Below, in pieces: positions 25,170 through 30,356 of a DNA stretch of 64,000 nucleotides. The stretch's first letter is position 1. Every line of letters starts with the position of its first letter. Below the pieces are notes generated by a model, which did not search any database, was not told the origin of the DNA, and saw only the letters and a program-made list of their open reading frames with translations. The translations under genes were made by a program, and so were the position numbers. The DNA is from an uncultured delta proteobacterium. Its GTDB lineage: Bacteria > Desulfobacterota > RBG-13-43-22. The stretch covers positions 32,001 to 96,000 of the forward strand of contig CAWJJC010000017.1 of NCBI GenBank assembly GCA_963843145.1. Direction: 5' to 3'.

Positions 25170-25349
25170 TCTTCTGTACCTCCATTTCAGCCAGAATTAT
25201 GTAGATTTTTTTCTGCTCCTAGGCGTCCACAAAGCCCACAAGCCGGCAACTTCTAATAGATGGCGTCAAGGTGGATTACTCCCCCTCCCTGGACCATGTC
25301 CTTGGGAGTGGCCAGATTTCCTTGCCCAAGGATATCATTTTTGGTATCA

Positions 25350-25537
25350 TTACAGTTGACGAATACCTGAAAACCTGCAAGAGGATCGGGCGAGAACCGG
25401 AAAAGCCTTTCTCCGGTCGGTTCATGGTGCGGATTCCTTCCGAGCTGCATTGTGCCATTGCCCTGGCGGCCAAGAGGGAACGCAAGAGCATCAACGCCTG
25501 GATCGCCGAAATTTGTGAACAAAACGTTTTTGCTTAG
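25350..25537 (+). pseudogene. C-terminal part of a HicB-family antitoxin
   Basis: VDEYL..CKRIGREPEKPFSGRFMVRIPSELH..IA.AA.R..KSINAW is the HicB/RHH C-terminus; the N-terminal part is not recognisable and there is no hicA. Confidence 0.7.
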
Positions 25538-26982
25538 CCTTTCACCACCCCAAGCGGCCGGAGCCGCGCCACCTTTTTAGAAATCCCGGCGCCGTGAACC
25601 ACCTCCACCACCTGGGCCACGTCCTTATAGGCCTCGGAGATCTCTTCCACCACCGTGCCCATTCCAGCCCCCCGGACGATGATCCCCTTATCTTCCAGCT
25701 CCCGGAGGACGGCATGACCCCGGGCGGCTTTTTTAGCAGCCTGGCGGCTCATGACCCGTCCGGCGCCGTGGCAGGTGCTGCCGAAGGTCTCGGCATAGGC
25801 CTGTTGGGTCCCCAACAGCACATAGGAGTAACGACCCATATCCCCGGGGATGATCACCGGTTGCCCCAGTTCAAAAAAATCAGGAGGGATCTGGGGGTGA
25901 CGGGGAGGAAAGGCCCGGGTGGCTCCCTTGCGGTGAACGCACAGCCGTCTGATTTTCCCTTCAACCAAGTGATCTTCAAACTTGGCAATGTTATGGCACA
26001 GGTCATAAATCAATTCCAGTCGAAGATCCTTCGGTCCGCGTTGCAAGACCCGCTCCAGGGTTTCCTGGACCCAGTGGGTAATGATCTGCCGGTTGGCAAA
26101 GGCGAAATTAGCCGCCGCCGCCATGGCCCCCAGATAGTCCTGCCCTTCCGGGGAATTGATGGGGGCGCAGCACAATTGCCGGTCCGGGAGCTCGATGCCA
26201 TACTTGGCCGTGGCCCGGATAAGCTGTTTGATGGAATCGTCGCAGACCTGATGGCCCAGCCCCCGGGAGCCGGTATGCACCATAACCGTCACCTGATCTT
26301 CAAAAAGCCCCAGGGCCCGGGCCGCCGCCGTTTCATAAATCGTTTCCACGTAGCCCACTTCCACAAAATGATTCCCCGATCCCAGGGTTCCTAACTGGTC
26401 CTTCCCCCGTTCCAGCGCCCTGTTGGAAACGAGGTCCGGCCGAGCCCCTTCGATGCACCCCGCCTCTTCAATATGTTCCAGATCCTTGGGCGATCCATAG
26501 CCCTGCCGAACGGCCCATTGAGCCCCCTGCTGGAGGACCTTTTCCTGGTCTTTCGGAGAAAGTTTAAAGTCCTTGCGGTGGGACCCGACCCCGGAAGGGA
26601 TGTTGCGGAACAGGGCGTCCACGATTTCTTTCATTTTTCCTTGAAGGTCATGGCGGCTCAACCCGGAGCGCAGCAGACGCACGCCTCAGTTGATATCATA
26701 GCCCACCCCGCCAGGGGAAACGATCCCCTCCGCAGGGTCAAAGGCCGCTACTCCGCCGATGGGAAACCCGTACCCCCAGTGGATGTCCGGCATGGCCAGG
26801 GAATTCCCCACGATCCCCGGCAGCCAGGCCACGTTAGCCACCTGGTTCAGGCTCTGGTCCTTCCGGATATCCGGCAACAGCTCCGGAGAAGTGAAAACCA
26901 GGCCGTCGGTCCGCATCTTCCCCTCCCGGGGGATTCGAAATCGATAAGGATCGATTTGTTCCATCTTGATTTTATCCGCCAT
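25534..26982 (-). CDS. rtcB: RtcB RNA ligase, 482 aa, in-frame TGA at codon 99 (putative selenocysteine)
   Basis: The two ORF-track pieces are in one frame: [60 protein letters not shown] and the terminal VVKG are all intact. Confidence 0.93.
26656..26669 (-). promoter_or_regulatory. candidate SECIS hairpin in rtcB
   Basis: GCTC-CGGGTT-GAGC beginning 16 nt after the UGA, extendable by GGCG...CGCC pairing. Confidence 0.55.
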
Positions 26983-27024
26983 ACGCCCTCCCCTAAAATT
27001 TTTCTGAACAGAGAAAAATTTAAG

Positions 27025-27336
27025 ACGCTTCGCCCTTTTGGGTGGGTACCCCCCAGATCTGGTATGGCCGATGGGTCTCGGCGAAAGGGCTTTCCAAAGG
27101 TACTCCGGACTTCGAACCCGGGCCTAAAATACCAATTTTATTTGAAGCAGGCCCAAACTCAGAGGCTTTTGATGCTTCTTCGGCCGGCCCTGCCTCTGTG
27201 AAGATTTAGTAACATGGGGGCCGGGTTAGAACCTATAAAGCAAGGTGGAAAACCCTTTCGCCGAGACCCATCGGCCACGAAGGCCTGATTTCAGTCTAAT
27301 CTACCAGATATTGTGGCCACCCACCCAAAAGGGCGA
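27025..27336. repeat. family C repeat plus a diverged inverted partial copy (MITE-like, ~310 bp) between archease and rtcB
   Basis: 27025..27128 matches 22161..22268; 27246..27336 (GGAAAACCCTTTCGCCGAGACCCATCGGCCA...CCCACCCAAAAGGGCGAA) is its reverse complement with an insertion. Confidence 0.8.
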
Positions 27337-27352
27337 ACAACCAAATTTAAAA

Positions 27353-27823
27353 CTAAATATCAAAAATCACCCTGGCCCGCCAGCCTTTCGGGGTTTCCCG
27401 AATCTGCACTTGGTGATAGGTTACGGCCTTAACCCCGTGTTTGAAACCGTGCCGTTCCGGATCGTAATCCTCCCCCCAAACCCGGGCCTTCAGCGACCGA
27501 TCGTTCAGCTCCTCGATTTCAAAACGGCTGAAAACCAGACGGCGGGCGTCGAATAAATACAATAGTTCTCCCAGCCAGGCCACCAGCAGGGCCTCGCGAT
27601 CCGGCGCTTCGACCGAGACCTCCAGCGGTTTTATCGGTTTAATCTTCCGGACGTCCACCAGGAGGTCAAAAAAAGCCCAGGCCGATTGCTCGAAAAGGTC
27701 AGCCCGGTCTTTGCCTTGAACCGTCATCCCCAGGTCCCCGGTGTGGCTGATTAAGCGATAGGGCTTCCGGCTGAAAGTCATGGGGCTATTGTAACCCAAG
27801 GCAGTTTCTTCTTGCAATCTCAC
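27353..27823 (-). CDS. archease (RtcB activating cofactor)
   Basis: YRLISHTGD, L..WLGELLY, VKAVTYH and C-terminal VIFDI; the real start is probably MTFSRK. Confidence 0.92.
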   Translation of the reverse strand: MRLQEETALGYNSPMTFSRKPYRLISHTGDLGMTVQGKDRADLFEQSAWAFFDLLVDVRKIKPIKPLEVSVEAPDREALLVAWLGELLYLFDARRLVFSRFEIEELNDRSLKARVWGEDYDPERHGFKHGVKAVTYHQVQIRETPKGWRARVIFDI

Positions 27824-27869: not shown

Positions 27870-30356
27870 GTGACTATGATTAGACCCATTGTGCTGCTCT
27901 GCTTTTTTTTCTCCGGTTTCAGCGGGTTGCTGTATGAAGTCTTATGGCTGCGCCTGCTGATCCTCATCTTCGGCTCCACTACCCTGGCCATCAGCACGGT
28001 CTTGACGGCCTTTATGGGCGGTCTGGCCCTGGGCAGCTACTTTTTCGGCCGGATGATGGATCGTCAAAAACGTCCCCTCCTCTATTACGGAATACTGGAA
28101 GGGGTTATCGGTCTTTACGCCTTGATCATCCCCTGGATCTTCGGCAGCCTGATTCCGGTCTACCAATTTCTCTGGCAGCAATTTAATTTGAATTTCTACA
28201 GCTTCACCCTCCTGCAATTCCTGCTGATTACCGTGGTCCTGATCATTCCCACCACCTGCATGGGCGCCACCTTGCCCATCCTGAGCACCTGGGCCGTCCG
28301 GGAAGAAACCACCCTGGGGGTGACCATCGGCCGTCTTTACGCCTTGAACACCTTCGGGGCCGTGTTAGGCACCGCCCTCAGCGGTTTCTTCCTGTTGCCC
28401 GCTCTGGGGGTCCAACATACCTTGTGGATCGCCGTAGGCATAAACCTGCTGGTCGCCCTGCTGATCCTCGCCCTGTTGCCCCGGTTTCCTGAGCGTCCGA
28501 TGGTGGCGGAATCTCCGGGGTCAAAACCTGCTGGGAAATTTCTGGAAGCCACTTCGGGCCTACTGCCCAAGAAGGTAGTCTGGTCCATCGTCATCGGGAT
28601 CTCCCTATCCGGATTTATCTCCATGATCTACGAAGTGGCCTGGAGCCGGACCCTGTCTCTGCTGGTGGATTCTTCGGTTTACGGTTTTACCATCATGCTG
28701 ACCACTTTCCTGGTCGGGATCGCTTTCGGGTCTCTGATTTTTTCCCGGTGGGTGGATACCTTTCGTTACCAGGGATTTACCTGGGCACTGATGCAAATCG
28801 GAATCGGGGTCCTGGCCTTCCTGAGCCTGATTTTTTTTCAGGAGCTCCCCTACCTTTACCTCTTGCTTTACCAGACCATCGGGCAGTCCATCAATTTGCT
28901 TTTGCTCGGGAAGTACCTGCTGGCTTTTTTTATCATGTTGGCCCCTACCCTTTTAATGGGCGCCCTCTTCCCCTTGACCATCAAAATCTGCATGTCCCAT
29001 CTCAACCAGGTGGGCCGACTGGTGGGCAATATTTACACTATCAATACCCTCGGCTGCATTTTGGGGTCCTTTGCCGGCGGCTTCTTCCTGATCCCGCTGA
29101 TCGGTATCCGCAACACCATCCTGTTGGGCATCGGTCTGAATCTGCTCTACGGCCTATACGTCCTCTTGATCTCCCCGGCCCCGCGCCTCTATTTGAAAAG
29201 AGCGGCTTATGCGCTGACCATTCTTTTCGCGGCCGCCATCATGGCCTTTCCACCCGAATGGAAAGCGCCCTTGATGGCCAGCGGCGTCTATATCTATGCT
29301 CATAATTTTGAAAACACCTCCCGGTCCGACCTCCTGGCCATGTATTCCCCCCAAAACGAACCCCTCTTGTATTATAAGGAAGGGCAAACCTGCACCATCA
29401 GCGTCCATAAGTCCAAGTACACCGGAACCATTTACATGAAGTCCAACGGCAAAGTGGAGGCCTCGACCAAGGGGGACATGCCTACTCAGGTGCTGGTGGG
29501 CCACATTCCGCTGCTGCTGGCGCCCAAATTGGATGAAATCCTGGTGGTCGGCATGGGCAGCGGGGTGACGATCGGATCCGTGACTACCTTCCCCGCGAAA
29601 AAAATTACCCTGGTAGAACTGGAACAGGCGGTTATCGAAGGGTCCCATTTCTTTGACCACGTCAATTACCGTCCGCTGGAGGACCCGCGGATGCTTCTAC
29701 GGGTGGCCGACGCCCGTAATTACCTCCTGGTGACCCCCGATTTTTATGACGTGATCATTTCCGAACCTTCCAACCCCTGGATGGCCGGTATCGCCAACGT
29801 CTTCACCCGTGAATTTTTTCAGCTCGGCTTCGACAAGCTTAAACCGGAAGGCGTTTTCTGCCAGTGGCTGCAGTTATATAAAATTTCCCCGGAAAGCTTT
29901 AAAACCGTTTTGCGGACCTTTCGCGCCGTCTTTCCCCACGTCTACGTTTTCCAGCCTCAGGACAAAGACCTGGTCCTGGTGGGTTTCAAAACCCCTCCCG
30001 TGTTTTCTACGGCGGAGATCGAAAAACGAATGCAATGGCCCAAAGTGGCCCAGGACCTGAAGCGTATTGAAGTTACGGAATTGAAAACCCTCCTGGATCG
30101 TTTCGTGATGGGTCCCCGGGAAATTGCCGTGCTGACTCAAAAAGGCCCGCTCAATACGGATGACAATAACATCATTGAATTTTCCACGCCCAAGTCCCTG
30201 TTTGAAGAAACGGCGGAACTGAACAGCCAGGTCCTGGAACCCTTCCGCCGTCCGGCCGGAGACTATTTTAAGGACACCCTGCCGCTTCAGAGCCCGACTT
30301 GGAAATATGACAACTTCCGGCAGACCAATAACCCGAAAAGTCTAACAGGAGACTAA
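27870..30356 (+). CDS. fused MFS-like membrane domain / spermidine synthase-like domain protein
   Basis: Duplicated membrane repeats (SGFSGLLYEVLW, GRLYALNTFGA; SGFISMIYEVAW, GNIYTINTLG) followed by VVGMGSGVT, VELE, DARNYL and DVIISEPSNPW. Confidence 0.9.
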   Translation: MTMIRPIVLLCFFFSGFSGLLYEVLWLRLLILIFGSTTLAISTVLTAFMGGLALGSYFFGRMMDRQKRPLLYYGILEGVIGLYALIIPWIFGSLIPVYQFLWQQFNLNFYSFTLLQFLLITVVLIIPTTCMGATLPILSTWAVREETTLGVTIGRLYALNTFGAVLGTALSGFFLLPALGVQHTLWIAVGINLLVALLILALLPRFPERPMVAESPGSKPAGKFLEATSGLLPKKVVWSIVIGISLSGFISMIYEVAWSRTLSLLVDSSVYGFTIMLTTFLVGIAFGSLIFSRWVDTFRYQGFTWALMQIGIGVLAFLSLIFFQELPYLYLLLYQTIGQSINLLLLGKYLLAFFIMLAPTLLMGALFPLTIKICMSHLNQVGRLVGNIYTINTLGCILGSFAGGFFLIPLIGIRNTILLGIGLNLLYGLYVLLISPAPRLYLKRAAYALTILFAAAIMAFPPEWKAPLMASGVYIYAHNFENTSRSDLLAMYSPQNEPLLYYKEGQTCTISVHKSKYTGTIYMKSNGKVEASTKGDMPTQVLVGHIPLLLAPKLDEILVVGMGSGVTIGSVTTFPAKKITLVELEQAVIEGSHFFDHVNYRPLEDPRMLLRVADARNYLLVTPDFYDVIISEPSNPWMAGIANVFTREFFQLGFDKLKPEGVFCQWLQLYKISPESFKTVLRTFRAVFPHVYVFQPQDKDLVLVGFKTPPVFSTAEIEKRMQWPKVAQDLKRIEVTELKTLLDRFVMGPREIAVLTQKGPLNTDDNNIIEFSTPKSLFEETAELNSQVLEPFRRPAGDYFKDTLPLQSPTWKYDNFRQTNNPKSLTGD

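Follow-up and report, generated by a model that had tools for sequence, protein, structure and literature searches.

A gene for the RNA ligase RtcB that carries an in-frame UGA at codon 99 lies in a stretch of 64,000 nucleotides (nt), hereafter the window, from an uncultured delta proteobacterium (Desulfobacterota, lineage RBG-13-43-22; assembly GCA_963843145.1, contig CAWJJC010000017.1, positions 32,001 to 96,000 of the forward strand). The TGA is located where all studied RtcB relatives have a metal-holding cysteine. The gene is very probably functional, its UGA being decoded as selenocysteine (Sec) by the organism's own SelA, SelB, SelD and tRNA-Sec under the direction of a downstream hairpin, with a selenolate bridging the catalytic metals. 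Recoding of a conserved UGA at the metal-bridging residue is evident from the comparison of many genes, and we infer from the same sequences the insertion of selenium and a benefit of it.

The rtcB coding sequence (25534..26982, minus strand) consists of 482 codons and a TAA stop, with one in-frame TGA read through. Two minus-strand open reading frames (ORFs), 26982..26686 (98 amino acids [aa] plus the TGA) and 26682..25534 (382 aa), share one frame and are separated by TGA-GGC. When this TGA, the proposed Sec codon (26686..26688, minus strand), is read as U, a 482-residue product results, with GVGYDIN-U-GVRLL around residue 99. The product matches Pfam family PF01139 with 592.3 bits (cut-off 27) from residue 47 to residue 482, covering positions 1–426 of the 426-position model. 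Its best solved relatives, Thermus thermophilus TTHA1785 (638 bits) and Pyrococcus horikoshii RtcB (PH1602, 1uc2_A; 567 bits), match end to end, and a single RtcB copy was found in the organism's own genome.

A 2023 review of RtcB describes two Mn ions in the P. horikoshii enzyme: Cys98, His234 and His329 hold the first, and Asp95, Cys98 and His203 hold the second. It gives His404 as the GMP acceptor and reports that mutation of the metal-bridging cysteine abolishes activity (PMC10630183). In the alignment to 1uc2_A, residues D96, H205, H236, H330 and H405 of the window protein correspond to D95, H203, H234, H329 and H404, and U99 corresponds to Cys98. The family's bridging cysteine is thus the one active-site residue that the window gene lacks, its codon being TGA. 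The gene is classed as a variant rather than as an ordinary RtcB because this position would be filled, on the favoured reading, by the analogue selenocysteine. An earlier note, made from the sequence of the window alone, had claimed a full 482-aa RtcB upon readthrough, intact catalytic motifs elsewhere, a TGA at the Mn-bridging Cys98 column and an intact archease gene upstream; each of these observations stands.

TGA at this column recurs in many other genomes. Of the 36 RtcB matches listed from 41 related genomes, 19 have a single TGA; among 30 related loci compared, the Cys column is TGA in 19 and TGC or TGT in the other 11, and TGA is found nowhere but in this column. RtcB was found in 326 of 401 evenly sampled genomes from the same phylum (Desulfobacterota by source names). 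Within the best 150 RtcB matches of this sample (182 further matches lie beyond them), a single TGA occurs in 47 and other internal stops in none (13 families). In a sample of 151 Acidobacteriota genomes, the phylum of one Vicinamibacterales genome, RtcB was found in 80 and a single TGA in 4; this tally takes in two unpublished genomes (G486 and G511).

A scan with a degenerate DNA pattern for G-Y-D-I-N-TGA-G, run on one genome per prokaryotic species (596 Gb), returned at least 120 stretches. Of 80 loci inspected, 77 are RtcB and 3 are chance matches; by our own estimate, chance alone would give about 100 matches in a search space of this size, so the enrichment is strong. The RtcB loci carry the labels Deltaproteobacteria/Thermodesulfobacteriota, Nitrospirae/Thermodesulfovibrionia (including Candidatus Magnetobacterium casense), Acidobacteria/Vicinamibacterales, Binatia, Eisenbacteria, Gemmatimonadales and Polyangiaceae. 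When all loci are pooled, 102 sequences have TGA in the column and 21 have Cys, so the TGA is not unique to the window's assembly, as the earlier note had proposed to check. Two features of selenoprotein genes are present here, namely a Sec/Cys pair at one column and a UGA kept across species with conserved coding beyond it. On these counts, the frequency of TGA at the rtcB Cys column is far above chance.

Coding constraint extends across the TGA. In 24 full-length Sec-type genes (112 pairs with a usable synonymous rate), the median ratio of nonsynonymous to synonymous substitution rates (dN/dS) is 0.066 upstream of the TGA (85 codons) and 0.087 downstream (374 codons), with a downstream maximum of 0.168. 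By this measure, strong purifying selection acts upstream and downstream of the TGA alike. The low downstream ratio, never above 0.168, argues that the segment 3' of the TGA is translated.

Bacterial Sec insertion sequences (bSECIS elements) are modeled in a recent review as hairpins with a loop of 3–9 nt, an upper stem of 4–16 bp, a G at loop position 1 or 2, 16–37 nt between UGA and loop and a minimum free energy no higher than −7.5 kcal/mol (PMC13188914). In the window, a SECIS-like hairpin, GCGCUC-CGGGUU-GAGC(C)GC, is predicted from sequence and folding at 26653..26671 (minus strand), nt 18–36 counted from the U of the UGA. Its apical loop CGGGUU (26665..26660) has 6 nt with G at position 2 and a spacing of 20 nt, and its stem has 4 continuous bp and 2 more beyond one bulged C (G18..C36). 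Loop, stem, G position and spacing all lie within the model. The core GCTC-CGGGTT-GAGC, previously noticed 16 nt after the TGA, was located at 26669..26656 and extends to 26671..26653.

Among 94 distinct Sec-type sequences, three lineage-specific hairpin designs (types A, B and C) occur at SECIS distance after the TGA. Type A (67 sequences, the window gene included) is found in Desulfobacterota and many Acidobacteriota. Its general form is GCGCUC-loop-GAGC(C)GC at nt 18–36, and its stem positions are paired in 90.5% of cells over the 67 sequences, versus 25–41% when the partner strand is slid; the mean energy is −9.0 kcal/mol (range −15.4 to −4.5), and the median z is −1.62 against resamples that keep the peptide and redraw synonymous codons. 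In type A variants with an altered peptide (S-R to E-R, or R to V), the hairpin is kept with a shifted register. Type B (8 sequences, from Binatia, Eisenbacteria, Gemmatimonadales and some Acidobacteriota) has the stem GAAGACC/GGUCUUC in the same place, a mean energy of −9.4 kcal/mol and a median z of −2.49, and two of its seven pairs show changes on both sides.

Type C (19 sequences, nearly all labelled Nitrospirota) is a long two-part helix spanning nt 14–55, with a 9-nt loop and a spacing of 27 nt; loop positions 1 and 2 do not always include a G. Its mean energy is −22.9 kcal/mol and its median z against synonymous resamples is −3.53. Pairing is found in 95.2% of cells, versus 88.9% in shuffles (0 of 500 reach the observed value) and 47–58% in slid controls. 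Five pairs have compensatory changes on both sides, a number matched in 1 of 500 shuffles; of the three designs, type C is the one whose covariation is significant.

In the 20 Cys-type genes, the corresponding mean is −5.3 kcal/mol and the median z is +0.18. Sec forms fold better than Cys forms (Mann–Whitney p 4e-6 and 5e-8), although these values are overstated because the sequences are related and no correction for relatedness was made. The energy of the whole 57-nt region carries a modest signal, with a median z of −0.77 for Sec forms versus +0.13 for Cys forms. The hairpin is absent from distant Cys forms; in six Cys forms near Sec forms, it is intact in five and has one mismatch in the sixth (L028).

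The distribution of the two forms suggests repeated exchange between Sec and Cys. In a quick maximum-likelihood tree of 45 full-length rtcB genes, from which the cut locus L050 was left out, at least seven Sec/Cys changes are required, and good branch support makes four of these unavoidable. Within the family of the window gene, a supported pair of Cys forms, L027 and L028, is nested among 15 Sec forms. As this pair lies inside a Sec clade and the hairpin is still present, intact in L027 and with its one mismatch in L028, a recent replacement of Sec by Cys is indicated.

The genome to which the window belongs has the complete Sec machinery, with SelB (369 bits), SelA (609 bits), SelD (395 bits) and a tRNA-Sec with anticodon TCA (75 bits), all above their cut-offs. 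The earlier note had named a lack of this machinery as a ground for giving up the Sec reading; none of the four components is missing. Nor did either of the other two refuting conditions set out in that note speak against the Sec reading. In the phylum sample, SelA is present in 46 of the 47 TGA-bearing genomes among the RtcB matches listed, and the exception (G002) has SelB and tRNA-Sec. Of the 77 genomes from the pattern scan, 55 were tested, with SelA found in 49 and SelB in 3 more (52 of 55).

Two further observations concern these components. The SelD gene of the organism (G000:C27:447576-448499, outside the window) contains one in-frame TGA, and SelD is thus probably itself a selenoprotein, judging from its sequence. 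Also, G002, which is of the same genus as the window's organism, has a second, shorter SelB-like frame (C14:99573-100799; 262 bits, model positions 1–342) adjoining a second tRNA-Sec-like gene (50.8 bits), with the canonical pair located elsewhere. These second genes may form a paralogous recoding pair.

Several results weigh against decoding of the UGA as Sec. Co-occurrence with Sec genes, one of the checks suggested at the outset, is consistent with Sec use and fails to discriminate because Sec machinery is common in both phyla sampled (SelA in 371 of 401 genomes of the organism's own phylum and in 121 of 151 Acidobacteriota). For three TGA-bearing genomes (G409, G411 and G418), Sec genes were not found. 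In G411, a 3.4-Mb draft labelled Candidatus Magnetobacterium casense, a search for SelA, SelB, SelD and tRNA-Sec found none, yet its rtcB (L141/L198) shows no damage, its single TGA falls in the Cys column and its hairpin is of type C. Possible reasons are that the draft is incomplete, that the contig is mis-assigned or that the UGA is decoded by another route. SelA and SelB were not found in G418, a very fragmented assembly in which rtcB is on contig number 826. In G409 (labelled Gemmatimonadales), SelA, SelB, SelD and tRNA-Sec were all looked for and none was found. The G409 rtcB (L199:1480-2960) has, besides the TGA at the Cys column, a frame shift over about residues 225–262, and the roughly 40 residues out of frame include the His234 motif and three more TGAs. 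This points to decay after loss of Sec use, or to indel errors of long reads.

The window hairpin, for its part, has an energy of −6.1 kcal/mol over 24 nt, above the −7.5 bSECIS limit, with a z of −0.01 versus shuffles. The 71-nt region folds at −14.6 kcal/mol into another structure (z +0.92), a competing fold that is more stable. Taken alone, the window hairpin is a marginal candidate that is no better than chance, and its proposed role as a bacterial Sec signal draws its support from comparison across relatives. Within type A, read in a fixed register, zero pairs are changed on both sides in the 67 sequences, and RNAalifold did not recover the hairpin from them; as the lower stem is spread over three registers, the program gave only a three-pair artefact that involves the UGA. 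Conservation of the type A hairpin may be due in part to the conserved peptide L-R-S-G-L-S-R. A further adverse point comes from an engineered P. horikoshii RtcB with Sec at residue 98, which is described as spontaneously cleaving a nearby peptide bond (PMC4150793). In the window gene, by contrast, the residue is naturally encoded by UGA and kept by purifying selection, and a protein that is both stable and useful is thereby implied.

Three other explanations of the UGA compete with its decoding as Sec, and the one most in line with current annotation is that translation ends at UGA-99 and restarts just downstream, giving pieces of 98 and 382 aa or one functional piece. Two codons past the TGA in the window lies a GTG that gene callers use, and 12 of the 120 best database homologues, comprising all those at 91–95% identity, are stored as 366- to 382-aa proteins whose first residue lies immediately past the TGA; some of these entries are from NCBI and some are named RtcB. 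Across the 94 distinct Sec-type sequences, however, the Val codon after UGA-Gly is GTC in 44, GTG in only 29, GTA in 13 and GTT in 8, and no ATG, GTG or TTG occurs within the next six codons in 33 of the 94 or within the next twelve in 27. From these alignments, no restart codon is conserved, and the GTG used by gene callers is a conserved valine codon. A break here would also put Asp96 on one piece and the other active-site ligands on the other, and a restart leaves unexplained why the break is always TGA, always in the Cys column and followed by a hairpin. We regard it as very improbable. Still less credence is given to a pseudogene, or to a TGA arising by sequencing or assembly error from TGC or TGT. 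The related G409 gene looks decayed in a genome where no Sec genes were found, and none of the sequencing runs screened for this genome contained more than 0.15 of the sampled words. Yet the same codon is present in the 102 pooled sequences from independent assemblies, other internal stops are missing from the best 150 matches of the phylum sample, and the downstream dN/dS is below 0.17 in all 112 pairs. In addition, a 176-nt DNA contig from another run, possibly the source sample, covers the TGA with 0 differences to the window. Contigs assembled at the locus from four runs are mostly from relatives, and a 343-nt contig from an RNA library (about 94% identity) covers the site. As the codon is always TGA, always at the catalytic cysteine and in independent assemblies from several phyla, a sequencing error does not account for it.

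More serious, albeit improbable, is readthrough of UGA-99 as cysteine or another standard residue, by a Cys-charged tRNA-Sec-like tRNA with SelB or by near-cognate readthrough. What the evidence proves is recoding of a conserved UGA, as distinct from the chemical identity of the residue inserted. Pairs of SelB-like and tRNA-Sec-like genes have been linked to Cys insertion at UGA, and G002 carries such a second SelB-like frame beside a second tRNA-Sec-like gene. Moreover, the G411 gene is intact with its single TGA, yet none of the four Sec components was found in that draft. In the window's own genome, by contrast, the canonical pathway is complete, including SelA and a probably Sec-containing SelD, only one strong tRNA-Sec is present and no second SelB above the cut-off was found. 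Maintenance of a UGA and a hairpin merely for Cys would bring no obvious benefit, and forms with TGC or TGT arise repeatedly. Decoding as Sec is therefore preferred.

In the preferred mechanism, SelB carrying Sec-tRNA-Sec would bind the hairpin as the ribosome stands at UGA-99, and Sec would be inserted at this codon under the direction of the hairpin, which starts 14–16 nt downstream. The selenolate would then replace the thiolate as the bridge between the two catalytic metal ions. The product would be the predicted full-length RtcB 3'-phosphate/5'-OH RNA ligase, working with the archease encoded upstream.

Recent accounts describe the metal-binding cysteine as the 'Achilles heel' of RtcB, which oxygen, peroxide or copper can oxidize, with destruction of the activity (PMC13247085, PMC12263435), and as an oxidation-sensitive weak point of the enzyme (PMC13247085, PMC10630183). 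Because this cysteine is called an oxidation-prone weak point in the literature, the most likely role of Sec would be protection of the metal-binding residue through easier recovery from oxidation; a shifted metal affinity or preference is a possible alternative role. Oxidized selenium is reduced back more easily than over-oxidized sulfur, and animals depend on a dedicated protector enzyme for the RtcB cysteine, PYROXD1.

Compared with Cys-type RtcB proteins (PH1602, TTHA1785 and human RTCB), the window protein belongs to the same family over its full length and has the same Asp and His ligands and the same GMP-accepting His. As in the window, archease is described as an operon partner of Cys-type RtcB (PMC3973293, PMC4604427). 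The difference lies at the metal-bridging cysteine, given as Cys98 in P. horikoshii and Cys122 in the human enzyme, where the window gene has UGA. The engineered Sec98 enzyme of P. horikoshii places Sec at exactly the same residue, but it is described as an artificial product of a UAG codon and an EF-Tu-based system (Haruna et al. 2014, PMC4150793), whereas the window gene has a natural UGA and a downstream hairpin.

Residue 98 of P. horikoshii RtcB is also described as an intein splice junction (PMC4150793). An NCBIfam model of intein-containing RtcB matches the window protein in two pieces with the break at residue 98. One residue is thus an intein insertion point in P. horikoshii, a metal ligand and, in the window gene, the putative Sec site.

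Bacterial selenoprotein genes such as those of the Escherichia coli formate dehydrogenases likewise have an in-frame UGA where homologues have Cys, and a hairpin just downstream. A review places the apical loop of such hairpins 16–37 nt from the UGA and lists SelA, SelB, SelD and tRNA-Sec as needed (PMC13188914). The seleno-RtcB candidate differs in being a non-redox RNA ligase, with three unrelated hairpin designs across phyla.

Sec is a direct ligand of the catalytic metal in formate dehydrogenase (Mo/W-Se) and in [NiFeSe] hydrogenase (Ni-Se). These enzymes are oxidoreductases with redox-active metals, whereas the binuclear Mn-type site of RtcB is described as serving nucleotidyl transfer and the making of phosphodiesters. 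Metal ligation by Sec as such has precedents; what appears to be new is Sec in a non-redox nucleotidyl-transfer enzyme.

The earlier note had expected annotation pipelines to call the gene a pseudogene. Instead, they start at the GTG two codons past the TGA and report a 382-aa RtcB. The stored 382-aa proteins are N-terminally truncated and lack two metal ligands, and because the genes are stored in this form, both selenoproteome catalogues and RtcB surveys miss them. A literature search, with subscription papers and RefSeq feature tables outside its scope, found no natural Sec-containing RtcB, the one relevant paper being that on the engineered Sec98 enzyme. The main text of a 2026 review tabulating prokaryotic selenoprotein families (PMC13188914) contains neither 'ligase' nor 'splicing', and the supplements of BSepDB 2026 (possibly incomplete), deep-Sep 2025 and Peng 2016 contain none of 'RtcB', 'ligase' and 'splicing'. 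In two reviews of RtcB (PMC10630183, PMC13247085), 'selen' and 'selenocysteine' have 0 occurrences. Natural seleno-RtcB is apparently undescribed, and gene catalogues seem to have missed it.

A broader proposal, which we consider rather more plausible than not while holding it with clear reserve, is that seleno-RtcB represents a widespread, unrecognized class of selenoenzymes with selenolate-bridged metals, found across many anaerobic lineages that belong to five or more phyla. Sec would have been gained or lost many times and served by three unrelated SECIS designs. With this class, a selenoprotein would for the first time be at work in RNA repair or splicing chemistry instead of redox chemistry, and the class would be nature's answer to the oxidative weak point that PYROXD1 handles in animals. 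The occurrence of Sec forms beside Cys forms in over a hundred genomes constitutes a ready-made comparative experiment, which can show what difference the chalcogen makes to a non-redox enzyme in how it binds and selects metals and how well it tolerates oxidation.

Upstream of rtcB on the same strand, the archease gene (27353..27823, minus strand) is an ORF from GTG 27823, with matches to Pfam PF01951 (149.3 bits, cut-off 25) and NCBIfam NF001617 (128.4 bits, cut-off 126). As the family match begins at residue 21–22, an alternative start was considered, and ATG 27781 may be the true one. An archease gene lies no more than 1.5 kb from rtcB at all 25 Sec-type loci examined and at 12 of 21 Cys-type loci; because several Cys-type loci have short, cut flanks, these counts do not support a contrast between the two types.

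Between archease and rtcB lies a palindromic repeat of about 326 nt (27020..27345, no strand assigned) resembling a miniature inverted-repeat transposable element. Across the genome it gives 109 match pieces; more than 20 of these are copies of nearly full length (68–98% identity). As RNA it would fold at −173.9 kcal/mol (z −12.8). The gap between the two genes is 370 to 373 nt in the window versus 156 nt in L024, a locus of the same genus that lacks the repeat, and contigs from other samples join across the repeat site without the element. The repeat is an insertion and no part of the ligase system. A search of the spacer for tRNAs and known RNA families found none, and a T-arm-like motif seen there was discarded, as it belongs to this genome-wide palindromic repeat.

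On the other side of rtcB, an ORF resembling HicB-family antitoxins (25271-25537, plus strand; 88 aa, Pfam 71 bits) is convergent with rtcB and has a 4-nt overlap with its stop. Divergent from archease, an 828-aa ORF (27870-30356, plus strand) encodes an apparent membrane protein.

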